DNA of 64,000 nucleotides from Candidatus Acidiferrales bacterium (GTDB taxonomy: Bacteria; Bacteroidota; Ignavibacteria; Kryptoniales; JAKASW01), in the NCBI GenBank assembly GCA_035515795.1, contig DATJAY010000039.1, positions 142,964 to 206,963 on the forward strand. Reading direction: 5' to 3'. Made by a program: the position numbers and the translations under genes. Below, one piece after another: positions 6,965 to 41,459 of the stretch (the first letter of the stretch is position 1; the number at the start of each line of letters is the position of its first letter). The notes beneath the pieces are model-generated. The model was not told the origin of the DNA, did not search any database, and saw only the letters and a program-made list of their open reading frames with translations.

Positions 6965-8659
6965 ATGATTTACAAGTGGAAATTGTCCGAGCAGGGAAAC
7001 CATGAGCTGATCAGCGGCCTTGCGGCACAGCTGAAAGTGAAAGAGGTCGTGGCGCGGCTTCTCGTACAGCGAGGGTTCGATTCACCCGACAAGATAAAAT
7101 CTTTTTTCTATTCGAGTCTTCAGGACCAACATGACCCGTTTCTCATGGACGGGATGGATGCAGCAGTCAAGCGTGTGTTTAAAGCATTAGAACGAGATGA
7201 AAAAATTCTGATATACGGTGATTACGATGTTGACGGAACGACGGGTGCCGCATTGCTCTACATGTTTTTCAGGAATTTAGGAGCCGACGTAGAGTATTAT
7301 CTGCCTGATCGGCTGAAAGAAGGTTACGGCATCAGTACGACGGGCATCGAGTTTGCAGAAAAGAACGGTTTCACCCTGTTGATCAGTGTCGATTGCGGGG
7401 TTTCTTCAAGCAGAGAAATTGCTCTGGCATTGTCTAAGGGAATCGAAGCGATCGTTTGCGACCACCATGAAGTTGAACTATGCCCCGAGGCGGTTGCTGT
7501 CCTTGATCCTATCAAACCGGGCTGCGGCTATCCGTTTAAATTTCTATCGGGATGCGGCGTTGCCTACAAATTTGCAAAAGGCGTCTCCACTAAGCTCGAC
7601 AAACCCCAGCTTCCAGATGAGTATATCGACCTTGTCGCAATTGCGGCGGCAGCCGATGTCGTCCCCTTGACAGGAGAGAATAGAGTATTCGTCCGGTCTG
7701 GATTCGACGCCGTCGCGCGCCGTCCTCGTGCGGGAATCAAAGCGCTCTTTCAAAGCTCGCATATCGATCATACGAAATTGACAACGGGTCAGGTCTCGTT
7801 CATCATCGCGCCGAGAATAAATGCCGTCGGAAGACTCGGGGATGCAAAAAGAGCGGTGGAGTTGCTGGTGACCGACGATGAAGATGTCGCTGAGAAGTTT
7901 GCTCAAATTCTCGAGAAAGAAAATTTGCACCGGAAAATGCTCGACGAGCGTACCTTCAATGAAGCGAGAGATATGGCGTCCACGATGTTGTCGAGCAATT
8001 CCCTCGTTCTTCACAAGGACTCCTGGCACGCGGGAGTTCTCGGGATCGTAGCGTCGAGAGTTGTTGAAGCGTTTTATAAACCGACCATCATGCTTACGAC
8101 TGTTGACGGAGTTGTTCGCGGCAGCGCGAGGAGCGTAGTCGGATATGACATTTTTGCTGCAATACGTGAGTGCTCAGATCTGCTTTTTCAATTTGGCGGT
8201 CATAAGTTTGCTGCAGGTCTCGCACTCGGTCCCGGGAATTTGCAGAGGTTTCAAGAAATGTTTGAGCGGGTGGTCGCAAGAACCATCACCGAGGAGATGA
8301 AAACTCCTGTTCTAGCCATCGACGCAGATCTCGAATTGACGGAGTTGAACGACAGCCTCGTGGAGATTTTGAAGATGTTCGAACCCTTCGGGCCACACAA
8401 CACGAAGCCGGTTTTTAGAACGTTCGGCGTACATCTATCCGACGCTCGAATTGTGGGGAGTTCTCATCTTAAGATGAAATTGAAGGCGGGCGGGGTTACT
8501 TTCGATGCCATAAAATTCAGAAATGGAGAGATTACCGTAAAACCCGGCAGCAAATTGGATGTGGTCTACTCGGTAGATGAAAATCATTACGCCGGCAGTG
8601 TATATTATCAATTGCATGTAAAAGATTATAAGAATTCAGAGAAAAGTTTTGGAGGTTGA
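6965..8659 (+). CDS. recJ: Single-stranded-DNA-specific exonuclease RecJ
   Basis: 564 aa. DHH motifs IYGDYDVDGTTG, SVDCGV and VCDHH; DHHA1 GGHKFAAG. Confidence 0.93.
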   Translation: MIYKWKLSEQGNHELISGLAAQLKVKEVVARLLVQRGFDSPDKIKSFFYSSLQDQHDPFLMDGMDAAVKRVFKALERDEKILIYGDYDVDGTTGAALLYMFFRNLGADVEYYLPDRLKEGYGISTTGIEFAEKNGFTLLISVDCGVSSSREIALALSKGIEAIVCDHHEVELCPEAVAVLDPIKPGCGYPFKFLSGCGVAYKFAKGVSTKLDKPQLPDEYIDLVAIAAAADVVPLTGENRVFVRSGFDAVARRPRAGIKALFQSSHIDHTKLTTGQVSFIIAPRINAVGRLGDAKRAVELLVTDDEDVAEKFAQILEKENLHRKMLDERTFNEARDMASTMLSSNSLVLHKDSWHAGVLGIVASRVVEAFYKPTIMLTTVDGVVRGSARSVVGYDIFAAIRECSDLLFQFGGHKFAAGLALGPGNLQRFQEMFERVVARTITEEMKTPVLAIDADLELTELNDSLVEILKMFEPFGPHNTKPVFRTFGVHLSDARIVGSSHLKMKLKAGGVTFDAIKFRNGEITVKPGSKLDVVYSVDENHYAGSVYYQLHVKDYKNSEKSFGG

Positions 8660-19655: not shown

Positions 19656-21419
19656 ATGCTTGTACTACTTGGATTCGCGTTTCTTGCCGGACTCGTGACA
19701 ATTCTTGCGCCGTGTATCTGGCCGATCCTACCCATAGTCCTTTCGTCGTCTATCGCAGGTGAGGGGCATCGGAAGCCTCTTGGCATCACGCTCGGCATTA
19801 TGCTTAGCTTTGCTTTCTTCACACTTGCTATTTCCTATTTGGTGAAAGCGTTTCATTTCGACCCGGACTTCCTGCGATTTGTCGCGATCATAATTATCGG
19901 AATTTTAGGATTGTCGATGGTAATCCCGGCGCTGTCAAGGTTTGTGGAAGGTCTCATCAGCAGGATCAGCGGATTGCTCGGACAAGGGTCGAGGCAGGGG
20001 AGCGGATTTGTGGCGGGCTTCATCGCCGGGATGTCACTTGGGGTTGTTTGGTCGCCGTGCGCAGGGCCAATTCTAGCAGCAATTGCAGCGCTCGCGGCCA
20101 CGGGAAAGGTAACCATCAGCGTTGTACTTGTCACTCTCGCTTATGTCGCTGGCGTGGGGATCCCTCTGTTCATTTTTGCCTATGGTGGACGACAAGTGGT
20201 TACGCGGACGCGTTTTCTTTCTCGCTACACGGGCAGGATACAACAGCTGTTCGGTATAGTGATGATTCTCACTGCGGTTGGAATTTATACGAATTACGAC
20301 AGGCTGATCGAAACAAAACTCTTGAATGAATTCCCACAAATTGGCGCAGCCCTAAACCAATTCGAGAGCAGCAAAACGGTTTCTGATCAGCTCGACCTCC
20401 TGAAAGGGAACAAATCGGCAAACGACGATCCTGCTTCGGCGGCACCAGTCCGCTCAACCGAGAACGCATCTTATTTCAACGCAAACACTCCGGCCCCGGA
20501 TTTTGTCGGCATTACAGGATGGCTGAACACAGATTCGCCATTATCGATAAAGGACCTGAAGGGCAAAGTAGTCCTCGTCGATTTCTGGACATACACCTGT
20601 ATCAACTGCATCCGCACCCTTCCGCACGTGATATCATGGTACGATAAATATAAAGACAGAGGGTTCGTCGTTGTCGGAGTACATACGCCCGAGTTCCAGT
20701 TCGAGCACAATACGAACAACGTCCAGGATGCGATAAAGATGTACAATATTCATTATCCCGTCGCACAGGATAACGATTACTCAACCTGGAACAACTATAA
20801 CAACGAATATTGGCCCGCCGAGTACCTTGTCGATGCCTCTGGAAATATCAGGAGGACACATTTCGGTGAAGGTCAGTACGATGAAATGGAGATGGCGATA
20901 AGAACGCTCTTGAAGGAGAACGGTCAACCCATTTCAGAAACTACGGACGATCTGCCAGACCAAACCCCGACGGGCGTCCAGTCACCGGAAACCTATTTGG
21001 GCGCTGGACGAATGGAGTATTACTATGATGGTGGGAATACCGGTACCGTAGATAAGAAGTTTACGCTGGCAGATAATCTACGCCGAGATTCTTTCAGCTT
21101 CGGAGGGAACTGGAACGTCGAGAAAGAATTTGCGGTCGCAGGAAAGGATGCGGTGCTCGATTATGATTTCTTCGCCGACAAGGTATTTCTTGTCCTTCGT
21201 CCAGGAAACGCAGGTTCCATGGCGAGAGTTAAGGTGTTATTGGACGGTAGACCGGTCGACGATTCGAATGCCGGCGCAGATACTAATGATGGAGAAGTAA
21301 CGGTAGACGCCGACAGACTCTACAACTTGATAAACCTTAGAGGAAAGGCGGGCCATCATGTCCTCCATCTCCGGTTCGAGACGCCGGGAATCGAAGCATT
21401 CGCATTTACATTTGGGTGA
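19656..21419 (+). CDS. CcdA/DsbD-like thiol:disulfide electron transporter fused to an exported thioredoxin-like domain (DipZ-type)
   Basis: 587 aa. Membrane Cys motifs LAPCIWPILP and WSPCAGPIL, periplasmic redoxin motif DFWTYTCINCIRTLPH, and a C-terminal ~200-aa DipZ-like domain. Confidence 0.88.
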   Translation: MLVLLGFAFLAGLVTILAPCIWPILPIVLSSSIAGEGHRKPLGITLGIMLSFAFFTLAISYLVKAFHFDPDFLRFVAIIIIGILGLSMVIPALSRFVEGLISRISGLLGQGSRQGSGFVAGFIAGMSLGVVWSPCAGPILAAIAALAATGKVTISVVLVTLAYVAGVGIPLFIFAYGGRQVVTRTRFLSRYTGRIQQLFGIVMILTAVGIYTNYDRLIETKLLNEFPQIGAALNQFESSKTVSDQLDLLKGNKSANDDPASAAPVRSTENASYFNANTPAPDFVGITGWLNTDSPLSIKDLKGKVVLVDFWTYTCINCIRTLPHVISWYDKYKDRGFVVVGVHTPEFQFEHNTNNVQDAIKMYNIHYPVAQDNDYSTWNNYNNEYWPAEYLVDASGNIRRTHFGEGQYDEMEMAIRTLLKENGQPISETTDDLPDQTPTGVQSPETYLGAGRMEYYYDGGNTGTVDKKFTLADNLRRDSFSFGGNWNVEKEFAVAGKDAVLDYDFFADKVFLVLRPGNAGSMARVKVLLDGRPVDDSNAGADTNDGEVTVDADRLYNLINLRGKAGHHVLHLRFETPGIEAFAFTFG

Positions 21420-21436
21420 AAATGAGGAGAGAAAAT

Positions 21437-21970
21437 ATGAAAAAGAAGTTGCCGTTTGCATCACTGGTTGTGGTTCTTGGAGTACTTGGAATAATGCTGT
21501 ACCGTCATCCACACACCTCTGAGTCAGGTCCGGTTTCGGGTAACGGAAGAATCCTTTCGGGATCCTTCGACAGCACGAAGTTCAAGACAGATTCGCAATG
21601 GAAGAAGATCCTTACTCCTGTGCAGTACTACATTTTGAGAGAAGCCGGCACGGAGGCTCCCTTCACGGGAGCTCTGGATCACGAGTTTGGCAAAGGAATC
21701 TATCTCAGTGGTGCGACGCGCGAACCCGTGTTCAACTCAAATCAGAAGTTTAATTCCGGCACGGGATGGCCGAGCTTCTGGGCACCTATCAAACCGGACG
21801 CTGTTGTTCTTCGGTGGGATTACAGCCTTCCCGGAGAACCGCGAATTGAAGTGTTAGACAAGAGTGGAAGTCATCTCGGTCACGTGTTCGATGATGGTCC
21901 ACCACCGACAGGAAAGCGTTACTGCATAAACTCGGCCGCATTGATATTCGTGCCGGATACTACGAAATGA
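21437..21970 (+). CDS. msrB: Exported peptide-methionine (R)-S-oxide reductase MsrB (zinc-less, single-Cys form)
   Basis: Motifs REAGTEAPFTG, GTGWPSF, HLGHVFDDGPPPTGKRYCINS. N-terminal signal/anchor MKKKLPFASLVVVLGVLGIML. ATG 21437 with a GGAGAG RBS (track start GTG 21416). Confidence 0.9.
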   Translation: MKKKLPFASLVVVLGVLGIMLYRHPHTSESGPVSGNGRILSGSFDSTKFKTDSQWKKILTPVQYYILREAGTEAPFTGALDHEFGKGIYLSGATREPVFNSNQKFNSGTGWPSFWAPIKPDAVVLRWDYSLPGEPRIEVLDKSGSHLGHVFDDGPPPTGKRYCINSAALIFVPDTTK

Positions 21971-22005
21971 ATTTTACCGAATAAAAACAAAAGAGGAGAT
22001 ACAAA

Positions 22006-22272
22006 ATGAAAAAGATAGGCGCGTTCATTCTGGCAGTGTTGGTCATGATGACCGGGACAACGCTCGCGCAGGAGATGAAGCAAATGAAACCTGCAATGAC
22101 AAAATCGGATACTTCGATGATGAACAAGAGCATGAAGAAATCATCGATGAAGAGAATGAAGATGAAGAAGTCTTCAAAGAACATGAAGATGAAATCTTCG
22201 AAAAAGGATTCGACCATGATGAACAAGAAGATGATGATGAAGGGGAAGAATCCAAAGCCTTCAATGGATTAA
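22006..22272 (+). CDS. Secreted methionine/lysine-rich peptide (MXKDX-repeat-like)
   Basis: 88 aa. Signal peptide MKKIGAFILAVLVMMTGTTLA. The predicted 67-aa mature part has 17 Met and 20 Lys (hand count) and no Cys or aromatics. AGGAGA RBS; lies 35 nt after msrB. Confidence 0.7.
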   Translation: MKKIGAFILAVLVMMTGTTLAQEMKQMKPAMTKSDTSMMNKSMKKSSMKRMKMKKSSKNMKMKSSKKDSTMMNKKMMMKGKNPKPSMD

Positions 22273-22297
22273 GCAAGAAAACCTAGCTCACTCTGCG

Positions 22298-22321
22298 TCC
22301 CTCTCCTTCACGGGAGAGGGA
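22298..22321 (+). terminator. 9-bp GC-rich hairpin after the Met-rich peptide gene (possible terminator, no U-tract)
   Basis: TCCCTCTCC-ttcacg-GGAGAGGGA, 26 nt after the stop codon. Followed by ATGGGGGCG rather than a T-run. Confidence 0.3.
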
Positions 22322-22360
22322 ATGGGGGCGATGTTCTCTAAAGGTTCCCCACCGTCAGCT

Positions 22361-22387
22361 TGTCAATTTCCATACATAACTCACGTC
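22361..22387 (+). promoter_or_regulatory. Speculative ECF-type promoter (TGTCAA-N17-CGTC)
   Basis: Resembles the TGTCGA / CGTC -35/-10 pattern I recall for DGPF-associated ECF42 sigma factors. It is ~265 nt upstream of the first YciI gene. Single occurrence, so weak. Confidence 0.2.
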
Positions 22388-22652
22388 TCCAGCGGAGAAT
22401 CGTCCTCTATATATTCATCTCTCTAAATTTCTCCAGATTTGAACCGAAATTATGCAGCTCTACTATTTATTGTGTTGGACAATGAGATTTCTATGTACGG
22501 CAGGCAAAAAGTTTTTGAATTTACACGTCCAAATTTCCTGAGTCCATTCGTTGTTATGGTAGAGTTCGGAAAATATACGGAGCGCCTTCCACAAAAACTC
22601 GTAATTGGAGCCGCAGGCGTTTAAGATTGAATTAGAGAAAAGAGGAAACAAG

Positions 22653-22991
22653 ATGAAGGATTATTTGTTGCTATTTAGAAGCGGAATTGACCTCAAGTCA
22701 GTATCACCTGAACAACTTCAAAATCAGATGATGAAATGGCAGAGATGGCTTGGCGGGCTCGAAAAGGAGAAAAGGCTTGTCACCGGTCAGCGCCTGACGC
22801 CCGGAGGCAGGGTGCTCACCAGCGCAAAAAAGGAAGCCATTGACGGTCCGTATTCCGAAGGAAAAGAAGTCATCGGCGGATACCAGATGATTAAAGCCAA
22901 AAGTCTTGATGATGCTGTTGAGCTCGCGAGAGGCTGTCCGATTTTTGATCTCGGCGGAAGCGTCGAAGTCAGAGAAACAATGGTTAACTAG
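22653..22991 (+). CDS. YciI/DGPF family protein, paralog 1
   Basis: 112 aa from ATG 22653. Motifs MKDYLLLFR, DGPYSEGKEVIGGY, GCPIF and VEVRE shared with the other two paralogs. Confidence 0.85.
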   Translation: MKDYLLLFRSGIDLKSVSPEQLQNQMMKWQRWLGGLEKEKRLVTGQRLTPGGRVLTSAKKEAIDGPYSEGKEVIGGYQMIKAKSLDDAVELARGCPIFDLGGSVEVRETMVN

Positions 22992-23034
22992 ACAAACCAG
23001 TCAAGGTTAGTAACAAAATATCAGAGGTGACATT

Positions 23035-23652
23035 ATGAATACGCAAATAGCAAATAGTTATCTAAAGAAAGTAAACACCGTTAGCGCGGATGAACCGTTT
23101 CTCCTTCCAGTGGAGAAGCCTAAGAATATACTCATGAAGATGGTGTATTACTTCACTCGGAAACAATTTGGTAAAGTCATGACACCACTCAGCGTAGGTT
23201 CCGTCCGATTGCCTATTGCGTTTGGGATGTTCTATGGAAAGGTATCGAAGTTGGACAAGAAGCTGGCCCTGCCTGAAGAGACCGCTATGCTTATACGCCA
23301 ACAAGTGGCAAGAATCAACGTCTGCCTTTTCTGCATGGACATCAGCCGATATTACATGATTCAGAAATCGATGAACATAGAGAAGTTCGACGCCCTGGAC
23401 GAATACAAGACGAGCTCGCTCTTCACCGACGCGGAGCGAGCTACGCTGGATTACGTGACCGAGCTGACAAAGAACAAGAATGCCGATCCGGAACTCTTTG
23501 CTCGTATGGCAAAATATTATTCGGAACGAGAGATCTGCGAAATCATGTGGCTCGTCGCAAGCGAGCATCTCTACAACCTGACCAACATCGGCCTGAACAT
23601 ACATTCAGACATGCTTTGTGACATCTCAAAAAAGAAAAAGGCGGACAGATGA
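23035..23652 (+). CDS. Carboxymuconolactone decarboxylase / AhpD-like family protein
   Basis: 205 aa. RINVCLFCMDISRYY (CxxC in the AhpD-like helix) and ERATLDYVTELT, typical of CMD-domain proteins. Confidence 0.8.
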   Translation: MNTQIANSYLKKVNTVSADEPFLLPVEKPKNILMKMVYYFTRKQFGKVMTPLSVGSVRLPIAFGMFYGKVSKLDKKLALPEETAMLIRQQVARINVCLFCMDISRYYMIQKSMNIEKFDALDEYKTSSLFTDAERATLDYVTELTKNKNADPELFARMAKYYSEREICEIMWLVASEHLYNLTNIGLNIHSDMLCDISKKKKADR

Positions 23653-23837
23653 GAGCGAAGATCGTAAGCCATTGGGCAACCACGATACTTCTTATCGCCG
23701 TCATCATGCTCATTTCATGGGCACTTCGCCCGCGAAGCCGTACGCTTGGGGTCCTATTTCCTACGGCAAAAGGCGAATTAGGCAACACTATGAATAGTAT
23801 GAGTACAATGAAATTAAAGGAGGACTTAGGAGGATGA
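23649..23837 (+). CDS. Small single-pass membrane protein (62 aa), translationally coupled on both sides
   Basis: ATGA overlap with the upstream stop (23649-23652) and ATGA overlap with the downstream start (23834-23837). TM helix WATTILLIAVIMLISWAL flanked by K and RPRSR. Confidence 0.5.
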   Translation: MRAKIVSHWATTILLIAVIMLISWALRPRSRTLGVLFPTAKGELGNTMNSMSTMKLKEDLGG

Positions 23838-24199
23838 GCAAGGCATCGACCAGAAAAACCGTCACGAGGTATTACGACGGCGTCAAGAAGAAAAACGGGT
23901 GGGAGTCAGTAATCTCCGATGATATGCTGTTCACCATGGGGAAGCAGACGACAAAGGACAAATCGAGCTACGTGGAAATTACCGGCAGGTTTCTTCGTGC
24001 CGTCACCGATTCAAATGTGAAAGAGATGATCATTGATGGAGACAAGGCTTGCGTGGTGGTCGCGTACGATCTTATGTCACCAAAGGGGAACACTTCGACC
24101 AAGGACGTTGTTGAAATCTTGAAGATCGACGGCGACAAGATCGCCGCCTCAACAATATTTTTCGATACCGAGGATTTCAAAATGTTCATGGCTGATTAA
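23834..24199 (+). CDS. SnoaL-like / NTF2-fold protein
   Basis: 121 aa. Size and alpha+beta cone pattern (VTRYYDGVKKKN..., ..GDKIAASTIFFD) typical of the ketosteroid-isomerase-like fold. Family-level call only. Confidence 0.7.
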   Translation: MSKASTRKTVTRYYDGVKKKNGWESVISDDMLFTMGKQTTKDKSSYVEITGRFLRAVTDSNVKEMIIDGDKACVVVAYDLMSPKGNTSTKDVVEILKIDGDKIAASTIFFDTEDFKMFMAD

Positions 24200-24210
24200 C
24201 GGGAGTAACC

Positions 24211-24558
24211 GTGGCATGTAATGAAGAGCTTACTATGCGTGTTAGAGAAGCGCTGGCACACGTGAGAAAAGTTGAAGAGAAGAGAATGTTTCGCGGAGTC
24301 ACCTTCATGGTTAACGGCAAGATGTGCGTGAGCGCTGGCGACAATAAGATAATGTGCCGTATAGATCCGTCAGTTTATGAGTCAGTGCTTAGAAGGAGTG
24401 GATGTAGTCCCGTCATTATGAAAGGGCGTGAGTATAGGGGATTCGTTTACGTCGATGAAGATGCGATAAAAAGTAAGAGAGACTTCGACTATTGGATAGG
24501 CCTCGCGCTCGAATTCAATAAGAGGGCGAAAGCGTCCAGGAACAATAGAAAGAGATAG
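24211..24558 (+). CDS. TfoX N-terminal domain protein
   Basis: 115 aa. MRVREALAHV..EKRMFRGVTFMVNGKMCV pattern of TfoX_N. GTG start (alternative ATG 24235). Confidence 0.8.
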   Translation: MACNEELTMRVREALAHVRKVEEKRMFRGVTFMVNGKMCVSAGDNKIMCRIDPSVYESVLRRSGCSPVIMKGREYRGFVYVDEDAIKSKRDFDYWIGLALEFNKRAKASRNNRKR

Positions 24559-24589
24559 TCAGCCATGATAGGAGAATTGTGAGGAAAAG

Positions 24590-24976
24590 ATGAAAGAATA
24601 CCTTTTGTTGTTTAGAGGCGGATACGACAGAATCGTTCAGCAGTCTCCGAAGGAGTTTTTAAGTCACATGGAAAAGTGGAAAAAATGGATGAAGGATTTG
24701 GAGTCGAAAGAAAACTTTGTAATTGCACAACCGCTGACTCAAGGTGGGAAAAAGGTTGCAGGAAAGAACAAGGCGGTGACGGATGGACCGTTCATGGAAG
24801 GCAAAGAAATTGTCGGTGGTTATCTTATCTGTAAAGCATATACATACGAAGGCGCAATTCAGATAGCTAATGGATGCCCAGTACTTGAGATTGGAGGCAT
24901 CGTCGAGGTCAGGGAAATTACAAAAATGGATTCGATAACGGCAACATACATGGCACAAAATGACACGACGCATTGA
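24590..24976 (+). CDS. YciI/DGPF family protein, paralog 2 (with ~14-aa C-terminal extension)
   Basis: 128 aa. Motifs MKEYLLLFR, DGPFMEGKEIVGGY, GCPVL and VEVRE, followed by an extra KMDSITATYMAQNDTTH tail. Confidence 0.85.
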   Translation: MKEYLLLFRGGYDRIVQQSPKEFLSHMEKWKKWMKDLESKENFVIAQPLTQGGKKVAGKNKAVTDGPFMEGKEIVGGYLICKAYTYEGAIQIANGCPVLEIGGIVEVREITKMDSITATYMAQNDTTH

Positions 24977-25649
24977 TTACTCCGGCGGCACCGCAGTCTC
25001 CTTACGTCAACGAAAAGGAAACCCGCGGCATACGCACCACCCCGATTGGAACGACAGTTACGCTCAAGACTTTGTGCCATGGGACACCGGCAAGCCGGAT
25101 CCACTCTTGACGTCGTTTGTAGAGTCCGGGCGTGTCAGACCCGGGCTAACGCTCGAGGTAGGATGTGGAACGGGGACCAACGCCCTGTGGCTGGCAGGAC
25201 GCAGGTTCGATGTCCTCGGCATAGACGTGGCGCCGCTTGCCGTGGATAAGGCACGCGCCAAACAGGGCAGGACGATGGGATGTCGGTTCGAGACCATGGA
25301 CTTTCTCGCCGCGCCGCCGCAGGGACAGTTTGATTTCGTTTTCGACCGCGGCTGCTTCCACACCTTCGACGAAGCCGAAGATCGCACTCGCTTCGCCGCG
25401 CACGTAGCCGGTCTGCTTAAGCCGGAAGGAATGTGGCTGAGTCTCATCGGAAGCACTGAAGGCCCGGCGCGCGAAGTGGGCCCGCGCCGACGCAGTGCTC
25501 TTGAGGTGGTGGCGGCAATCGAGCCGGTGCTGGAGATCGTCGAACTCCGCGCCGACGCTTTCCACACGCGAGGTGAGTCGCCCAAGGCGTGGTTCTGCCT
25601 CTCGCGCCAGCGTAGAATGCCGGCGCAGCCGTCGACCCGCCACGATTGA
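24960..25649 (+). CDS. Class I SAM-dependent methyltransferase (TPMT/TehB-like), GC-rich
   Basis: 229 aa. Motif I LEVGCGTGTNALWLA and post-I VLGIDVAPLAV. Sample lines hand-counted at about 57-65% GC versus 40-50% in the flanks. Overlaps the YciI-2 end by 17 nt. Confidence 0.8.
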   Translation: MTRRIDYSGGTAVSLRQRKGNPRHTHHPDWNDSYAQDFVPWDTGKPDPLLTSFVESGRVRPGLTLEVGCGTGTNALWLAGRRFDVLGIDVAPLAVDKARAKQGRTMGCRFETMDFLAAPPQGQFDFVFDRGCFHTFDEAEDRTRFAAHVAGLLKPEGMWLSLIGSTEGPAREVGPRRRSALEVVAAIEPVLEIVELRADAFHTRGESPKAWFCLSRQRRMPAQPSTRHD

Positions 25650-25793
25650 GCAACACTGGCCAACTGACACAAAGCCTGCTCATGAGCATAGCGATTGGAT
25701 CGATTTTGGGCGTGAAGTGATTTGCACGAGCGTAGGTGCCACTTTGCGGGCATATACGTAATTTGAAACATTAAATCATATGAGGAGATTTAC

Positions 25794-26252
25794 ATGACCC
25801 CCAGTAATGAAAAGCTGAAGTCAACAAAAAAGAAGTCCAAGGGATTTTCTGACGAGGAACGAGCCGCAATGAAGGCTCGTGCCAAAGAGCTCAAAGCGGA
25901 AGCGCGCGCGAATAAGGATAGGGAGGAAGGGGAGAGCGCCGCACTCACGGCGATTGGAAAGATGAAGGAACCCGACCGTACCATGGCGAAGCGACTCCAT
26001 GCAATCATCAAAGCCAGCGGCCTATCTGCGAAAACATGGTACGGAATGCCCGCTTACACCAACGGGGACGGAAAGATCATCTGCTACTTCCGCGACCGGC
26101 AGAAGTTCAAAGAAAGGTACGCGATGTTCGGCTTCAACGACTCAGCGAGCTTGGACCAGGGTTCAATGTGGCCTGTCGCCTACGCTCTGCCCGAGTTGAT
26201 CTCCGAAGACGAGGCTCGGATCGCCTCGCTCGTGAAGAAGGCGGTGGGTTGA
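25794..26252 (+). CDS. DUF1801 (YdhG-like) domain protein, copy 1
   Basis: 152 aa. [20 protein letters not shown] core. Lys/Glu-rich N-terminal segment. Confidence 0.8.
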   Translation: MTPSNEKLKSTKKKSKGFSDEERAAMKARAKELKAEARANKDREEGESAALTAIGKMKEPDRTMAKRLHAIIKASGLSAKTWYGMPAYTNGDGKIICYFRDRQKFKERYAMFGFNDSASLDQGSMWPVAYALPELISEDEARIASLVKKAVG

Positions 26253-26383
26253 TTTTGAAAGTCCGAATGTCCGCAAGGAATCACAACTGCGCCGTGAAGG
26301 GGTTCCAATCCTGAACGGCATCACTTCGGGAGTACAACTCCATCTCGGCGTTGAGAGCTTTGAGTTATTATGAGGAGATTTCT

Positions 26384-26860
26384 ATGAGCCCAGAAAAGAA
26401 AGCACAAAAGTCAGCCAAACGCACCATTGCAAGCGGCAAGGCCTACGAGGGATTATCGTCTGAAGAAATTGCGGTCATGAAGGAGACCCTCAAAGAAAGA
26501 AAGGCGGCTGCGAGCAAGGAAGAGGCGGAAAAAGCCGTGCTTGAGAAGATCGCCGAGATGAAGGGGTCGGATCATATCTTGGCAAAACGCATCCACGCAA
26601 TCATCAAAGAAAGCGCGCCGGTTCTTTCGGCGAAAACCTGGTATGGGATGCCCGCCTATGCCAACGCGGACGGAAAAGTCATTTGCTTCTTTCAAGCTGC
26701 AAGTAAGTTTAACGCGAGATATGCAACGTTCGGCTTTCTACCCGATGCTAAACTTGACGAAGGCAATATGTGGACGACCTCCTTTGCAATGATCAAGTTG
26801 ACCGCTACCGAAGAGGCAAAGATCGCCGCGCTCGTGAAGAAAGCAGTAGGCTCGATGTGA
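26384..26860 (+). CDS. DUF1801 (YdhG-like) domain protein, copy 2
   Basis: 158 aa from ATG 26384. [20 protein letters not shown]. Same RBS context (TATGAGGAGATTTnnATG) as copy 1. Confidence 0.8.
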
Positions 26861-27306
26861 AAACAAGTACTAGTCTTTCCACGAAAGAGAAGTCTGCATC
26901 TCAACAGATAGATGCTATAATCAAAGAGCCGGGTGACTGGCGGGGGAAGAAGCTGTCGCAGCTGCGGGCTTTGATCAAAAAGGCAGACTCTGCCATCGTA
27001 GAAGAGGTGAAGTGGAAAAAACCATCCAAACCTTCTGGTATACCTGTTTGGTCTCATGACGGAATAATATGCGTAGCAGACACGCTCAAGAACGCCGTGA
27101 GATTGACATTTCCCAAAGGTGCTCAGGTGAAGGATCCGAAGAAGCTTTTCAATACTCGTCTGGAAAGCAAAACGGTCCGTGCCATCGACTTTCACGAAGG
27201 TGACACGGTGGATGAGGAAGCGCTGAAGGGACTCATTCTCGATGCCGTGGCGGTGAACAGATCAAAAAGCGCGAGCGATAAAATGAATAAACGATTAAGA
27301 CAGTAA
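26857..27306 (+). CDS. DUF1801 domain protein, divergent copy 3
   Basis: 149 aa from GTG 26857 (GTGA overlap with the copy 2 stop). Motifs [27 protein letters not shown]...PVWSH.GIIC...K..V.LTF.KG. Confidence 0.75.
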
Positions 27307-27319
27307 AGGAGAACAATAT

Positions 27320-27697
27320 ATGCAATTAGTCAATAAACTCATGATGCTTGCCGTGGCTGTCAGCGACATGCCGAAGGCAAAAGCCTTTTATGCGGACAAA
27401 CTTGGTTTGAAGGTCACGACAGACTACCGCCAGGATGATGACCACTGGTGGGTATCCCTTGCTCTCCCCGAAGACGGAGTTGCCATAACCCTAACCACCT
27501 TTCACGGAAATGCGAAGCCCGGCGCGATGACGCTGTGGTTCGCGACTTCAGACATTGCTGCGGCCCACAAGGATCTCAGCGCCAAAGGAGTCAAAGTCAG
27601 CGAAATCGGTGACGACTTGCACGGTCCAGGGTCAGGCATAAAGTGGTTTAATTTCAAGGACCCTGACGGTAACATGGTTCACCTCGAACAGGCGTAA
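27320..27697 (+). CDS. VOC (glyoxalase/bleomycin-resistance/dioxygenase) family protein
   Basis: 125 aa. Motifs AKAFYADKLGLKV and F.DPDGNMVHLEQ typical of the VOC fold. Confidence 0.85.
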   Translation: MQLVNKLMMLAVAVSDMPKAKAFYADKLGLKVTTDYRQDDDHWWVSLALPEDGVAITLTTFHGNAKPGAMTLWFATSDIAAAHKDLSAKGVKVSEIGDDLHGPGSGIKWFNFKDPDGNMVHLEQA

Positions 27698-27840
27698 GGT
27701 GATGGGCACATTAAAGGAAAGTAGAAAAAAATGTTTAACAAAGAGGGGCAAACACTTGAACATTCTACAAAGTTGAAAAATATATGCGGCAAATTCTCGA
27801 TCGAAAGGGATTAAACAATTAGTAAGAGGACAAATTAGAC

Positions 27841-28185
27841 ATGAAAGATTTCATGTTCCTTTTCAGGTTCAAAGATGGATTCGATTACAAAACCGCTTCG
27901 CGTGAAGAATTTCAGAAAGAGGCGATGAAATGGCAGACATGGACTGAAAATCTTCTGAAGGAAGGAAGACTTACTCCAGGCAATCGTTTGGTCCAATCTG
28001 GAAAAGTAGTCAAAGGAAAGAGCAAGCAAGTGCACGATGGGCCATTTGCCGAAGGGAAAGAAGTCGTCGGGAGTTTCTGCACTGTCAAAGCACGAAACAT
28101 TGACGAGGCTCTCGAGGTCGCGAAAGGATGCCCTATCCTCGACCAGGATGGCAGTGTCGAGGTAAGAGAGATCAAGGTTTACTAA
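27841..28185 (+). CDS. YciI/DGPF family protein, paralog 3 (immediately upstream of the sigma factor)
   Basis: 114 aa. Motifs DGPFAEGKEVVGSF, GCPIL and VEVRE. Lies 13 nt upstream of the ECF sigma gene. Confidence 0.85.
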   Translation: MKDFMFLFRFKDGFDYKTASREEFQKEAMKWQTWTENLLKEGRLTPGNRLVQSGKVVKGKSKQVHDGPFAEGKEVVGSFCTVKARNIDEALEVAKGCPILDQDGSVEVREIKVY

Positions 28186-28198
28186 AAGGGGGCTGGCG

Positions 28199-29488
28199 AT
28201 GGAAGACAACAACGTCGATAAGCTTGTCGATCACCTTTTCCGCCATGAATCGGGGAAGATGGTTTCCGTGCTGACGCGGACTTTCGGGACAGAAAATCTC
28301 GAAATAGTTGAAGACGTTGTGCAAGATGCTCTTCTGCAGGCAACTCAGCTCTGGCCGGTAAATGGAATACCGAACAATCCATCCGCGTGGTTGTATCAAG
28401 CCGCGCGAAACAAAGCGATCGATGTATTAAGACGAAACAACCATTCGGTCAGGTTGGAGACAGAGGAGGAATCCAGTCTTCCTGATGCGGACTCGTTATT
28501 ACCGGGAATGATCGACGAGGCGGGACAGGAAGAGATTGTGAAAGACGATATGCTTCGCATGATGTTTGTTTGCTGCCATCCTGCAATCCCGGAGGAAAAT
28601 CAGATCACACTTATTCTGAAAGTGCTTTGCGGATTCAGCACGGCCGAAATCGCCAGGGCATTCCTGACTTCCGAGGACACGATTTCTAAAAGATTATACC
28701 GGACGAAAGAATTTTTCCGGTCGCACAAGATTGAATTTGCCGTCCCTCTGCCGAATAAACTGAAAAGCAGAATAGATGGAGTGCTGAACTCGATCTATCT
28801 CCTGTTCAATGAAGGATATAACTCGACTGACTCCGAAGAGTTGATACGGAAAGACCTGATGGAAGAGGCGATACTACTTTGCAAGATGCTTACCGAGAAT
28901 CCTCTCACGTCACAGCCGGAAACTTTTGCGCTGATGGCATTGATGTGTTTCCAGTCGTCGCGCAACGACAGCCGCCTTACACCCGAGGGAGAAATAATCT
29001 TGCTGCCGGACCAGGACAGAAGCAAATGGGATTTTGAATTGATCGCGGCGGGGAACGAATTTATGAACAAAGCGGCGTATGGAGATTCGGTGAGCAAGTA
29101 CCATCTCGAAGCCGCGATCGCGTTCGAACATTGCACTGCGGAGAGTTTTGACAGGACGAACTGGGCAAGGATACTAGAGCTGTACGAATGGCTCTGCCGT
29201 GTTTCGTCGTCGCCGGTTCTGGAATTGAATAAAGCTGTCGCGACGATGCAGGTTCATGGAGCCGCAGAAGCATTGAGGTTGTTAGTGAACATCCGGGACA
29301 AGAAAAAAATTGAGACTTACCACATTTACCACAGCCTGTTGGGAGAAATCTATTGTCGCCTGGACAGGAAGGGGGACGCCCGTGAGGAATTTGAAATTGC
29401 AGAAAGGCTGACCGGGTCAGAAACGGAGAGAAGGCTGATGAGGGAGAAAATTTCCGCGATTGCACGCCTTGAGGCGGCCGCAGGATAA
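28199..29488 (+). CDS. ECF sigma factor with long C-terminal extension (ECF42-like, DGPF-associated)
   Basis: 429 aa. Region 2 VQDALLQA..NPSAWLYQAARNKAIDVLRR, region 4 GFSTAEIARAFLTSEDTISKRLYRTK, then YLLFNEGY and a ~230-aa helical-repeat tail. No adjacent anti-sigma gene. Confidence 0.88.
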   Translation: MEDNNVDKLVDHLFRHESGKMVSVLTRTFGTENLEIVEDVVQDALLQATQLWPVNGIPNNPSAWLYQAARNKAIDVLRRNNHSVRLETEEESSLPDADSLLPGMIDEAGQEEIVKDDMLRMMFVCCHPAIPEENQITLILKVLCGFSTAEIARAFLTSEDTISKRLYRTKEFFRSHKIEFAVPLPNKLKSRIDGVLNSIYLLFNEGYNSTDSEELIRKDLMEEAILLCKMLTENPLTSQPETFALMALMCFQSSRNDSRLTPEGEIILLPDQDRSKWDFELIAAGNEFMNKAAYGDSVSKYHLEAAIAFEHCTAESFDRTNWARILELYEWLCRVSSSPVLELNKAVATMQVHGAAEALRLLVNIRDKKKIETYHIYHSLLGEIYCRLDRKGDAREEFEIAERLTGSETERRLMREKISAIARLEAAAG

Positions 29489-31840: not shown

Positions 31841-32755
31841 CGGCGTAGTCGTGAAACCTGATGAATAATTACTTACCAATTGATGTCCGTAATTGTCACC
31901 GACTCCCGCTGGAATGGCTATGGAGTATGCCGTATTGTACTTCATTGCGTCAATAGAGGAGAAAGAGGCAACAGTGGAGTCGCCGTTGTAAAAGCTCCAT
32001 TTGCCCTTCAAAGTCGGCGTGATAGTGATCTGGGATAGAGCGCTCGCCTGGAGTGGGCTGTTGAACATTACTTCCATGTACTGTCCGTTTAGGATATTGA
32101 CGTTCGTCTGACCTGCTGCCGGAAATGAATATATCACGCGGAAATTAGGTTCAGGCGTAAAAGAGAATGTATAAGAAGTCTGAAGATGGTTCCCGTTGAT
32201 GTCTTCAAGTGAGGTATCGATAGTAACGGTGTAAGTCTTGCCGACAGCATACCGCATTTGAACGCCGCCGTAGCCGGTCTCATAGGTTAAGGAGTCGAAA
32301 ATGTCGAATTCCAGTACGTCGTCATAACTTTCCGGTTTGTTCGAACGATGCTGTGTGTCCACGCTTTCGGTAGTGCCTGTACGGTTAGCAGATTGCGCCT
32401 TATCGTATATGACAGGGATAGAGGTCAAGTGAAGTATTACTACGACCGGTCTGTCAAAGCCTTTGCATGTTATCGCTCCCACTTTTAGCGAGTACGTGCT
32501 CATAAGCTTGTTAAACTGCAAGACGAACGAAGGTCTGCTCGATCCTGACCCTGGATTGTAAATGTCGAAGGGGCCGACGCTCTTATCGGCCGGAAGTGTA
32601 AATATGACTTTCGGCTTTATCGAGGAATCGGAAAGACTCCCTTGATCTCCTGTGGGGTTGGAATTTTTGGTGCAGCCCGAGAGCAAAAGGAAAACGATTA
32701 ATAGGCATGATAACTTGAGAGCCCTAGAAGATTTTAGAATGAAATAGAACTTCAT
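30623..32755 (-). CDS. Surface lipoprotein made of about six tandem SbsA/Big_5-type Ig-like domains
   Basis: Start set at ATG 32755 (MKFYFILK...LLLSGC lipobox). Repeated units F(Q/R)V.S.SP.DG..NV....I.V.F...ID..T.RSAF.I.P...G......F.F.P...F...T.YTV.IST.L....G..L...Y..SF.T. Confidence 0.75.
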   Translation of the reverse strand: MKFYFILKSSRALKLSCLLIVFLLLSGCTKNSNPTGDQGSLSDSSIKPKVIFTLPADKSVGPFDIYNPGSGSSRPSFVLQFNKLMSTYSLKVGAITCKGFDRPVVVILHLTSIPVIYDKAQSANRTGTTESVDTQHRSNKPESYDDVLEFDIFDSLTYETGYGGVQMRYAVGKTYTVTIDTSLEDINGNHLQTSYTFSFTPEPNFRVIYSFPAAGQTNVNILNGQYMEVMFNSPLQASALSQITITPTLKGKWSFYNGDSTVASFSSIDAMKYNTAYSIAIPAGVGDNYGHQLVSNYSSGFTTTPFQVQSVSPTDGSTNVSSTTEVYFSMTGGIDTSTIRSAFTISPSTTGTLYYSGNGPTDFYFMPAPGFAFNTKYTLTLSTALRATDGTYLSAPFSASFTTQAFQVTSTSPSDGSINVPSSQNIYVYLNGPIDTSTVRSAFSISPNIAGYFTDYYGSDYFEFTPYNGFSMGTNYTVSISTALKALNATPLPSDYTFSFSTQPFQITSCSPSNGTSDWPLNYSPISVYFNTLIDTASARAAFSINPNTSGYFSFYNYSGSPEFTFTPNNGFKLGTTYSVVISTAMKSLGGGNLSSPYTFSFSTVPFRVSISPTDGSTGVSRGTSIEVYCDAQYDTSTVRSAFSISPSVSGSLQFFGNSNYSPYFSFYPTNSTSFSANTKYTVTISTTLKAYDGTPLPQTYTSTFTTGSY

Positions 32756-40002: not shown

Positions 40003-40368
40003 ATGCAGATCAGCAGAGAAGATTTTGAGGCGGTCAAGGAACTTGAAGAATCGATGTGGCGCTCCGAAACGCGATTCGACAGGGACTATATGGAACGTGT
40101 ATTGTCGCCGGACTTCTTCGAGTTTGGGCGTTCAGGTCGCGTCTACAAGAGAGAGGATACGCTCGCTGCGCCCGCACAGAAAATCAATGCGAAGCTCCCG
40201 CTGAAAGATTTTAGAATCCATCCGATTACTGAAGATGTTGTGTTGGTAACTTACATCACTGAAGTGATCGGAAATAAGCTGGAGATGGGGAACAGGAGCT
40301 CAATTTGGATTAGAACTCCGAAAGGGTGGCGGCTGAGGTTTCATCAGGGAACGCCGGTCAACTCATAG
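40003..40368 (+). CDS. NTF2-fold (DUF4440/SnoaL-like) protein
   Basis: 121 aa. Motifs FDRDYMERVLSPDFFEFGRSGRVY and WRLRFHQGTPV typical of DUF4440-like proteins. Confidence 0.65.
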   Translation: MQISREDFEAVKELEESMWRSETRFDRDYMERVLSPDFFEFGRSGRVYKREDTLAAPAQKINAKLPLKDFRIHPITEDVVLVTYITEVIGNKLEMGNRSSIWIRTPKGWRLRFHQGTPVNS

Positions 40369-40444
40369 AGATCCGAAGAAGAAGGTAGCACACACTGTCA
40401 GTTCTCGAATAAAGGCACAGTCCCAACTCCAGTCATTCCCTTAC

Positions 40445-40900
40445 TCACTCCCACTTCTGCAACTCTACGATATTTCCTTCCGGATCGCTGGCATAGACGA
40501 ACTCTATTTTACCTGCACCTTTGATTTCTGTAGAGACTCGATCTCCGACTTTACCTCCTCCATTACGGATAACCTTTTCGAGCATTTGCTGAACATTTCC
40601 GACAGCGAAAGCTATGTGGCCAAAACCAGGCCGATTAATTTTGTGTGCCACACCCCTGGTCATGCTGGAGTATTGGAAAATTTCTGAAGTGGGTCCATCC
40701 TCTCCATAACCGGGAAGTTGGAGGTGAATTCCTCGGATACGGGCATCGTGAAGTGATGTTGCGTCGACCAGCCATTTTCCCTTCAGATCTCGTTCGGGGG
40801 GTTTAAGTGTGCATCCAAAGACATCTATGTAAAACTGGGCGAGCGACTTCCAATCTCTTGCCACTAAATTTGTATGCACATACCTTATCGGGCGGGCCAC
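40445..40900 (-). CDS. VOC (glyoxalase) family protein
   Basis: 151 aa. Motifs FYIDVFGC, GFGHIAFAV and DPEGNIVELQ. Confidence 0.8.
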   Translation of the reverse strand: MARPIRYVHTNLVARDWKSLAQFYIDVFGCTLKPPERDLKGKWLVDATSLHDARIRGIHLQLPGYGEDGPTSEIFQYSSMTRGVAHKINRPGFGHIAFAVGNVQQMLEKVIRNGGGKVGDRVSTEIKGAGKIEFVYASDPEGNIVELQKWE

Positions 40901-40958
40901 AATTAATTTCTTATCAGGTTGTCGAATTTGTCAAATGCCATGTAAGCATAAGTTTAGT

Positions 40959-41459
40959 TCAGGAAGAAATTACGTTTTTCAAATTTATATTCCTGTTTCT
41001 CAAATCGACGCCGCCTTCAAGTACGGATTTCAGATTTGCAAGATAAAATGCCCATCCTTTCGTACAGCCGAGATGAAAACTTATTTTTGATTCTTCATCG
41101 GCAGGAATATCTTCCTGCTGAAGTTCTACAAGAGTATATCCGGATTCAGTTTTTATCTTTACACTGACTATTCCAGCTTTGCCGAACACAAACCTCAGAG
41201 AGTCTTTACCGTCTGCCTCCAGAATTGTTCCTCTTTCGACAGTTCCATCGTCATAGCCATGCCACAACCATTCGTAAGTATCGCCTTTTTTGATGTGATC
41301 ATTGGGAGGTCTCGGTGATTTGTCTGGCTTTGAAAACGCCGCCCTTCTTAGAAACCACCGTTCGAGATCGGTTTGGGTCGTCCACGAGTCGTAGATTTCT
41401 CGCACCTCAGAATTGATCGGGATCCTTAACACAAATCTGCTCCAGTCGTATCGTTTCAT
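40959..41459 (-). CDS. SRPBCC (Aha1/START-like) domain protein
   Basis: 166 aa. IYDSWTTQTDLERWFLR and a ..GWAFYLANLKSVLEGG tail typical of AHSA1-type SRPBCC proteins. Confidence 0.75.
   Translation of the reverse strand: MKRYDWSRFVLRIPINSEVREIYDSWTTQTDLERWFLRRAAFSKPDKSPRPPNDHIKKGDTYEWLWHGYDDGTVERGTILEADGKDSLRFVFGKAGIVSVKIKTESGYTLVELQQEDIPADEESKISFHLGCTKGWAFYLANLKSVLEGGVDLRNRNINLKNVISS

Follow-up and report, generated by a model that had tools for sequence, protein, structure and literature searches.

The window analysed here, a stretch of 64,000 nucleotides of contig DATJAY010000039.1, carries on its + strand a block of 13 co-oriented genes (~7 kb, 22653-29488) that begins with a gene of the DGPF/YCII family and ends with the gene for an ECF42-type sigma factor (ECF, extracytoplasmic function). 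From head to end, the block encodes DGPF type 1, a 205-aa AhpD-like protein, a 62-aa open reading frame (ORF), a SnoaL/NTF2-like protein, a TfoX_N-domain protein, DGPF type 2, a methyltransferase, three proteins of DUF1801 or DUF1801-like type, a VOC-fold protein, DGPF type 3 and the sigma factor. The ORF listing and profile searches against Pfam and NCBIfam bear out this gene order, as well as the orientation and coordinates, as given in a preliminary description made from the letters alone, which had counted 14 genes instead of 13. Nine of the 12 junctions overlap or are no wider than 43 nt (range −17 to +43 nt), with overlaps of 4-17 nt at four of them; the tight packing described earlier thus holds for these nine, but not for three long gaps at 25650-25793 (144 nt), 26253-26383 (131 nt) and 27698-27840 (143 nt). 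The + strand gene run itself begins upstream of the block, at 19656, and the gene downstream of the sigma factor is a convergent dCMP deaminase.

The last gene (28199-29488, + strand) encodes a sigma factor of 429 aa with regions 2 and 4 as its only core elements (Sigma70_r2, residues 13-81; Sigma70_r4_2, residues 121-171; NCBIfam TIGR02937 sigma70-ECF, 58.5 bits against a cut-off of 42.9), followed by DUF6596 (residues 191-293, E = 4.5e-34) and tetratricopeptide repeat (TPR)-like helices up to residue 428. Residues 177-429 lie past region 4 and form a C-terminal extension of ~250 aa, near the ~230 aa described before, with the motif YLLFNEGY at residues 200-207. In the AlphaFold2 model (pLDDT 84, pTM 0.82), residues 185-428 are all-helical and arranged as stacked helical hairpins, and the top Foldseek matches of the model in the PDB are TPR proteins (designed CTPRs, Tom70 and APC/C subunits; probability ~1.0, with weak E values of 3e-3 or above). 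By sequence, its PDB matches are ECF sigmas only, and there is no solved ECF42 structure in the PDB. The sigma factor has at least 7941 homologues at E ≤ 1e-10 in many phyla, some of them with TPR Pfam matches; the family is well conserved, with none of the best 120 below 61% identity, and these come from Bacteroidota, Ignavibacteria, Kryptobacter and others.

In reviews of the ECF42 group, the TPR extension is essential, the YCII neighbour is conserved, and the partner and signal are unknown (PMC8999054, PMC7826278). Members studied so far include Streptomyces venezuelae SVEN_0747/4377/7131, Sinorhizobium meliloti RpoE10 and Pseudomonas putida ECF-10 (PMC8999054, citing Liu et al. 2018 and Wu et al. 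2019; PMC6180224), and the extension is needed for the activity of the S. venezuelae members (PMC8999054). At the locus described here, the DGPF type 3 gene ends 13 nt before the sigma start, and among 80 loci retrieved for this sigma family, 67 have a YCII gene on the strand of the sigma gene, mostly directly upstream of it. Pfam and NCBIfam profiles detected no anti-sigma domain in the block's 13 genes or in those flanking it, a search that a novel anti-sigma factor could escape. Together with the type of promoter at the head of the block (below), the core, the extension, the DGPF neighbour and the lack of an anti-sigma domain support assignment to ECF42 on every feature examined in the sequence and the model, and the earlier reading of this gene as an ECF42-type sigma without an anti-sigma stands.

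A candidate ECF42-type promoter lies ~100 nt 5′ of the ATG of the first DGPF gene (22526-22552, + strand), with the −35 element CGTCCA at 22526-22531, a 17-nt spacer and the −10 element CGTT at 22549-22552; transcription would be expected to start a few bases past it. Its layout, two such elements 17 nt apart, is that of the mapped promoters of the ECF42 sigma RpoE10 of S. meliloti (TGTCGG-N17-CGTC; PMC6180224). The close relatives compared are loci L001, L003 and L005, whose sigmas are 79-82% identical, and also L002, L004 and L006. Aligned with the candidate promoter are TGTCCAAATT...ATTCGTT in L001 and L003 and AGTCCAAATT...GTTCGTC in L005, so that the window and these three relatives have in common the block (T/A/C)GTCCAAATT-N12-TTCGT(T/C) upstream of the first DGPF gene. 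The motif search proposed earlier for the region 5′ of 22653 therefore yields a conserved ECF42-type site. Across the wider set, the pattern NGTCNN-N16-18-CGT[CT] occurs within ~250 nt 5′ of the first YCII gene in 52 of 73 loci, against an expectation of 0.117 per 330 nt.

A position weight matrix (PWM) built from 38 independent loci, with the window's own clade excluded (consensus TGTCCgGA...TTCGTCaTaa), finds its top match on either strand of the 64-kb window at 22523-22562 (score 16.5; next best 12.6), and in its gapped form (spacer 16-18 nt) the head site, at 18.0, is the only site scoring 14 or more. The aligned sites of L001, L003 and L005 score higher (22.8-27.0), the three mapped S. 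meliloti RpoE10 promoters score 11.4-17.2, and those of other S. meliloti ECF groups −24 to +6. Inside the block, six gaps were scanned, including the three of 131-144 nt, and no ECF42-type site was found, all scores being ≤0.3; internal ECF42-type promoters upstream of 25794, 26384, 27841 and the sigma gene were accordingly rejected, the first three being places where the preliminary description had proposed to look for a motif. Alignments of the regions upstream of DGPF type 3 and of the sigma gene contain no conserved motif. The earlier proposal that each DGPF gene heads a sub-cluster of its own is unsupported as far as transcription units are concerned, as the first DGPF gene alone has an ECF42-type promoter (18.0 vs ≤0.3).

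Other matches were discarded. The first match to the S. meliloti pattern, an exact TGTCAA-N17-CGTC at 22361-22387, has no counterpart in L001, L003 or L005 when their upstream regions are aligned, and the window shows no enrichment of the pattern (14 matches vs 10.9 expected); this match is taken as chance. Three PWM matches with scores of 12-13, at 32089-32128 (−), 41223-41262 (+) and 41318-41357 (+), lie inside coding sequence and within the range of shuffled sequence. Between the candidate promoter and the first DGPF gene is a 5′ leader of ~100 nt (22553-22652, + strand), partly conserved in the alignment with relatives (TAGAGTTCGGAAAAT, GCAGGCGTT); it has no conserved fold (RNAalifold −0.81 kcal/mol, 6 weak pairs) and no Rfam match.

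The three DGPF/YCII genes, all on the + strand, lie at 22653-22991 (type 1, YCII-1, the head gene; Pfam YCII 47.7 bits, E = 2.2e-12), 24590-24976 (type 2, YCII-2; 48.0 bits, E = 1.7e-12) and 27841-28185 (type 3, YCII-3; 51.4 bits, E = 1.6e-13), against a Pfam cut-off of 24 bits. In the alignment, DGP(F/Y)xEGKE, GCP and VEVRE are common to all three proteins; the longer signature DGP(F/Y)xEGKE(V/I)xGG of the preliminary description holds except for its final GG, the third protein reading EGKEVVGS. The proteins belong to three orthologous types, with 74-89% identity within and 44-52% between types, and each type holds a fixed position, type 1 at the head, type 2 in the middle and type 3 adjoining the sigma gene, which marks the copies as old paralogs and not recent repeats. 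Type 1 has orthologues of 74-77% identity at the block head in L001, L003 and L005, and type 3 has orthologues of 79-88% identity in L001, L002 and L003. Type 2 is 85-89% identical to the copies in L003, L004 and L005, and 50-60% identical to sigma-adjacent YCII proteins, mostly of Bacteroidota (e.g., L008, L009, L011, L016, L028, L032 and L059); it is the type with the clearest sigma-adjacent orthologues in that phylum, types 1 and 3 being clade-specific. The nearest solved structure to type 3 is that of PA1349 (1S7I).

The family-wide DGPF invariants W32, L48, D64, E69, K71, A88, P96 and R107 are present in the window copies, and the charged residues among them (D64, E69, K71 and R107) are invariant across 91 DGPF sequences. 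The cysteine of the GCP motif is invariant in 11 aligned copies, those of the window and its closest relatives, but not across the 91 proteins, and a thiol-based DGPF mechanism was rejected on that ground. Charged invariants without a conserved cysteine would suit a ligand-binding or catalytic site better than a universal thiol switch. We note that G76, present in 88 of the 91 sequences, is replaced by serine in type 3 of the window, L001 and L003 (EGKEVVGS), which suggests that the sigma-adjacent DGPF protein may have diverged in function.

The close relatives keep the scaffold DGPF1...DGPF2...DGPF3-sigma (numbered by type) and differ in cargo and flanking genes. The block of L001 contains DGPF1, an AhpD-like gene, DoxX_2, a DUF1801-like gene, a 62-aa ORF, DGPF3 and sigma; that of L003 and L004 contains DGPF1, an AhpD-like gene, SnoaL plus TfoX, DGPF2, a DUF1801-like gene, DUF1801, VOC, DGPF3 and sigma; and that of L005 and L006 contains DGPF1, SnoaL, TfoX_N, DGPF2, two DUF1801-like genes and sigma. 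The comparison of neighbourhoods proposed earlier thus reveals a gene order that is not universal, in which the DGPF genes stay and the cargo and flanks change.

Nine cargo genes, all on the + strand, are interleaved with this scaffold. The gene at 23035-23652 encodes the 205-aa protein, which has a CLFC (CxxC) motif and matches AhpD/CMD-fold structures in the PDB with E values from 1e-7 to 5e-5 (Bmp8 debrominase, 6OHI, E = 1e-7; PA0269; CMD-family 7XW1). A Pfam search gave neither a CMD match nor any other, and the match to an NCBIfam YciW-related profile (E = 8.6e-18, 64.7 bits) is far under the equivalog cut-off of 310; the AhpD-like CMD assignment made earlier is thus likely at the level of the fold, with the CxxC motif in place. 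Bmp8 is a thiol-dependent debrominase (6OHI). The gene has orthologues in L001 and L003. It is followed by the 62-aa ORF (23649-23837), which overlaps both neighbours by 4-nt start/stop overlaps and has a single hydrophobic, transmembrane segment. Its core, SWALRPxSRxLGxLFP, is kept in L001 and L002, elsewhere in their blocks, and it is probably a real small membrane protein; only ~10 residues precede the transmembrane segment, a stretch too short for an anti-sigma domain. The SnoaL/NTF2-like protein (23834-24199) matches Pfam SnoaL_2 with E = 3.5e-5 and 24.8 bits (cut-off 27) and has orthologues in L003 and L005, the L005 copy having the Pfam match. The TfoX_N-domain protein (24211-24558; E = 6.8e-16) has orthologues in L005 and, within a 241-aa ORF (7021-7746) that matches SnoaL plus TfoX_N, in L003; the ECF42 operon of L051 also contains TfoX_N.

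The TPMT-like S-adenosylmethionine (SAM) methyltransferase (24960-25649; Pfam TPMT, E = 4e-18) has a GC content of 0.628, compared with 0.481 for the window, in agreement with the GC-rich SAM methyltransferase of the preliminary description. As listed, its ORF overlaps the DGPF type 2 gene by 17 nt, and the annotated start is probably ~24 codons too early. No orthologue is present in the blocks of L001-L006, among which the gene is unique to the window. Its closest homologues (65-77% identical, ~205 aa) are proteins of Acidobacteriota named 'methyl halide transferase' by JGI or SAM methyltransferases, and its two best (P0122 and P0123, 332 aa) are methyltransferase-glyoxalase fusions. The gene was probably acquired by horizontal transfer, and its acidobacterial and glyoxalase-fused homologues point to a recent gain of cargo of the same functional class.

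Of the three DUF1801 genes described earlier, the third alone passes the Pfam gathering cut-off of 27.2 bits (c, ~26857-27306; 68.3 bits, E = 8e-19), with 17.1 bits for a (25794-26252) and 20.8 bits for b (26384-26860). DUF1801-like a, with a Lys/Glu-rich N-terminus and a GC content of 0.553, and b are paralogs (51% identical); BLAST found no similarity of c to either, and a PDB search gave no match for b. ORFs of the a/b family are present in L001, L003 and L005, and by best phmmer match the L005/L006 copy alone is closest to b, those of L001, L002, L003 and L004 being closest to a. The start of c is likely the GTG at 26857, which overlaps the preceding stop as GTGA and gives a protein of 149 aa, the same length as the L004 orthologue. 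The VOC (glyoxalase/bleomycin-resistance) fold protein at 27320-27697 (Pfam Glyoxalase, E = 1.2e-18) has an orthologue in L003. Judged by their folds, these proteins (VOC, AhpD/Bmp8-like CxxC, TPMT-like, SnoaL and DUF1801) may bind or neutralise reactive or toxic small molecules.

Like the studied ECF42 systems, the locus combines a sigma2/sigma4 core and a TPR-like extension of ~200 aa or more with no anti-sigma, a same-strand YCII/DGPF gene directly 5′ and a promoter of the TGTC..-N17-CGTC type before the DGPF gene, and glyoxalase-like and small-ligand-binding folds belong to their regulons as well. The experimentally defined regulon of RpoE10 contains glyoxalase-like and hydrophobic-ligand-binding proteins (PMC6180224). 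Unlike the studied systems, the locus has three old DGPF paralogs and nine cargo genes alternating within a single co-oriented block; the families of cargo are partly different (AhpD-like, TfoX_N, DUF1801 and TPMT-like), the promoter is off-consensus (CGTCC... / CGTT), and the host is an uncultured FCB-like lineage and not a member of the Actinobacteria or Proteobacteria. From promoter to sigma gene the distance is 5673 nt, compared with a median of 519 nt, or one DGPF gene, in 55 related loci with a recognisable promoter; the longest such distances are those of L034 (5687 nt), the window and L051 (5519 nt).

Cargo-bearing ECF42 operons recur across phyla. Among 52 non-YCII ORFs behind ECF42-type promoters in other phyla, a Pfam census found Glyoxalase in 11, making Glyoxalase/VOC the commonest cargo family, Ble-like in 7, AHSA1 and DinB_2 in 6 each, Polyketide_cyc2 in 4, and DUF899, DUF1428 and PhnB-like in 3 each, as well as the DNA glycosylases Tag and AlkZ, GFA, GyrI-like and FMN reductase; the class is thus one of VOC/Ble-like, AHSA1/SRPBCC, DinB, PhnB-like, DUF899, Tag and AlkZ proteins. 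For example, L034, a Chthoniobacter metagenome-assembled genome (MAG), has YCII, PhnB/VOC, an unassigned ORF, FMN_red, Tag, AlkZ, DUF6157 and sigma, and L041 has AHSA1, two YCII genes, DinB_2, AHSA1 and sigma. These two loci, together with L011 (like L041 from the Chitinophagaceae/Phnomibacter MAGs) and L075 (a Verrucomicrobiae MAG), resemble the window in having promoter, YCII, small cargo and sigma on one strand; they differ in cargo (PhnB/VOC, FMN reductase, Tag, AlkZ, DUF6157, AHSA1, DinB_2, Polyketide_cyc2 and DUF899) and in having one to three YCII genes, usually in tandem, and none of them has the three-position scaffold. Given this recurrence, the block is a large example of a general ECF42 habit and not a different system; the novelty suggested earlier is overstated, as the group is already known and common, and cargo of the same class is found in ECF42 operons of other phyla.

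The ECF41 (SigJ type) sigmas are likewise regulated by an extension without an anti-sigma, have CMD-type and SnoaL-type neighbours and use a related promoter (TGTCACA...CGTC). They have a fused SnoaL_2 extension and an adjacent CMD/oxidoreductase gene, whereas the window sigma has DUF6596 and TPR-like helices, with SnoaL as a separate gene, and the S. meliloti ECF41 promoter scores 6.1 with the ECF42 PWM, compared with 11-17 for ECF42 promoters.

An inverted layout, with the sigma gene first, is found in three loci labelled Verrucomicrobiota or Dormibacterota (L064 10285-12543, L072 9117-10957 and L083 10373-14404). Three separate ECF42-type promoters (scores 26-32) follow the sigma gene there, each heading a small unit of VOC, YCII or other genes; the multi-promoter layout proposed earlier for the window is found in these lineages instead.

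With the sole ECF42-type site at the head, none in the gaps and no + strand terminator-like site in the block (terminator scan), one autoregulated operon is the most likely arrangement, and we consider it probable, from the sequence, that the block is a single positively autoregulated operon of this ECF42-group sigma. RNA polymerase carrying the 429-aa sigma would recognise CGTCCA-N17-CGTT at 22526-22552, and transcription would run through the 13 genes in the order given above, from DGPF1 to sigma; as the sigma gene is the last on such a single transcript, a positive feedback loop would follow. The activity of the sigma would be set by its own TPR-like extension, by analogy with other ECF42 members, and the DGPF proteins are candidate partners of that extension. 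The cargo would consist of small proteins that bind ligands or detoxify, in a set that varies with the lineage, and we infer that the system most likely protects the cell from small molecules that are reactive or toxic, for example electrophiles, alkylating or halogenated compounds and antibiotics. A more specific proposal, which we think decidedly unlikely, is that the three DGPF proteins are not cargo but ligand-specific adaptors that dock on the TPR-like extension and gate sigma activity, a multi-input sensor in which each DGPF protein would report its own class of toxic molecule, matching the detoxification genes behind it; if so, the ECF42 group would gain both the partner and the signal route that have long been sought for it.

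Several points weigh against the operon as described. The head promoter departs from the consensus by C for T at the first −35 base and T for C at the last −10 base (CGTT), and its score of 16.5 falls within the range of the best matches in shuffled sequence (mean 11.6, maximum 17.9; 30 shuffles), so that its weight rests on its position and its conservation in relatives. Overexpression of RpoE10 in S. meliloti gave no rise in its own YCII-sigma operon (PMC6180224), and autoregulation is therefore not universal in ECF42. The number of DGPF copies correlates with cargo length over 51 loci (Spearman rho 0.39, p = 0.005), but the correlation fades once the window's clade is removed (rho 0.21, p = 0.15), and the covariation suggested earlier is left without independent support. 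The cargo functions are fold-level assignments only. Finally, the gaps of 131-144 nt 5′ of 25794, 26384 and 27841 could hold housekeeping-type promoters that were missed by the consensus scan, especially if these are Bacteroidota-like; for this reason we rate co-transcription of the full block, from ~22555 to 29488, only a little above even, and hold the promoter and the ECF42 assignment with greater confidence.

Were promoters for the housekeeping sigma indeed present in these gaps, the block would be a chain of separate units, in which the ECF42 promoter drives DGPF1 and perhaps the next few genes, other promoters drive the DUF1801/VOC genes and the DGPF3-sigma pair, and most of the cargo is independent of the sigma. 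The segment of the methyltransferase and DUF1801-like a looks as if it was inserted later, together with the spacer behind it, and a gap of ~100-115 nt precedes the sigma gene in L001 and L005; both would fit such a chain, as do the long gaps themselves and the undetected autoregulation of RpoE10. The scans, however, found no terminator-like site on the + strand of the block and no gene in it that is preceded by a sigma-70 consensus promoter, no motif in the gap 5′ of DGPF3 is strongly conserved among the window, L001 and L003, and the scaffold order is kept as a unit despite differing flanks. We regard separate units as unlikely, though the best placed of the alternatives.

Less probable still, to the point of deserving little credence, is that the neighbours are unrelated to the sigma and that the site is a permissive one, gathering small accessory genes by insertion around a DGPF-sigma pair as the sole functional module. 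Cargo that varies among close relatives (DoxX_2 in L001, the methyltransferase in the window only), a methyltransferase that is a compositional outlier with acidobacterial relatives, and the lack of cargo in most ECF42 loci, with their median promoter-to-sigma distance of 519 nt, would all be expected of such a site. It does not account for cargo that always lies between promoter and sigma, shares their strand and is packed closely or with overlaps, or for the recurrence of the same narrow fold class in independent ECF42 operons of Verrucomicrobiota and Bacteroidota and in the RpoE10 regulon, and the genes are not flanked by cassette-type or insertion-type repeats. An integron, cassette array or mobile island was rejected, as there is no repeated intergenic element and the sole repeats arise from the paralogy of DUF1801-like a and b. 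The profiled ORFs of the window include the housekeeping RecJ, PyrC, Alr, Rho and FolC.

A single positively autoregulated operon, the reading that we prefer, bears on a group whose signal, DGPF role and physiological output remain open in reviews (PMC8999054, PMC8103513), and ECF42 is one of the most widespread ECF groups. With three DGPF paralogs and nine cargo genes placed after a single promoter, the locus offers an unusually rich cis-regulon from which function may be read, and the operon and the cross-phylum cargo census point to defence against reactive or genotoxic small molecules, as a hypothesis for the whole group. New here are the single conserved promoter, the scaffold of three DGPF orthogroups with turnover of cargo, and the census; the PWM can be used for regulon prediction in genomes of Bacteroidota, Verrucomicrobiota and Acidobacteriota. 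As an expanded ECF42 example the locus will not surprise a specialist, and it is a good handle on what ECF42 senses.

Directly 5′ of the block, upstream of the ECF42 promoter and unlinked to the block in relatives, is a three-gene unit on the + strand (19656-22272). It encodes a fusion of CcdA/DsbD_TM, TlpA-like thioredoxin and Thioredoxin_10 (587 aa), an MsrB of 184 aa with an N-terminal membrane anchor or signal sequence, whose gene overlaps that of the fusion by 4 nt, and a secreted peptide of 88 aa, whose mature part of 66 residues contains 17 Met (26%) and 20 Lys (30%). The unit resembles the system of Azospira, in which a periplasmic methionine-rich peptide and a methionine sulfoxide reductase (MsrP/YedY) scavenge hypochlorite (PMC4436054), with MsrB and a CcdA-thioredoxin electron supply in place of MsrP/YedY. 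Just 3′ of the Met-rich peptide gene, a GC-rich hairpin without a T tract (22300-22322; CCCTCTCC-TTCAC-GGGAGAGGG), unflagged by the terminator scan, may end this unit.

The same fold classes, assigned by eye, recur in another small cluster at 40003-41459, which comprises ORFs of 121 aa (+, SnoaL/DUF4440-like), 151 aa (−, VOC-like) and 166 aa (−, AHSA1/SRPBCC-like). No ECF42-type promoter is present upstream of it, and two PWM matches of ~12.5 inside the 166-aa gene, on the opposite strand, look like chance. Further along, the product of the gene at 50865-52928 (+) is a type IX secretion lipoprotein resembling PorW/SprE (E = 3.6e-35, a match below cut-off). A Por_Secre_tail protein occurs in the related locus L005, and the nearest relatives of the sigma come from Kryptobacter, Ignavibacteria and Bacteroidia; on these grounds the organism seems to belong to the FCB group, and its NCBI label as a 'Candidatus Acidoferrales/Acidiferrales bacterium' (Acidobacteriota) is doubtful.

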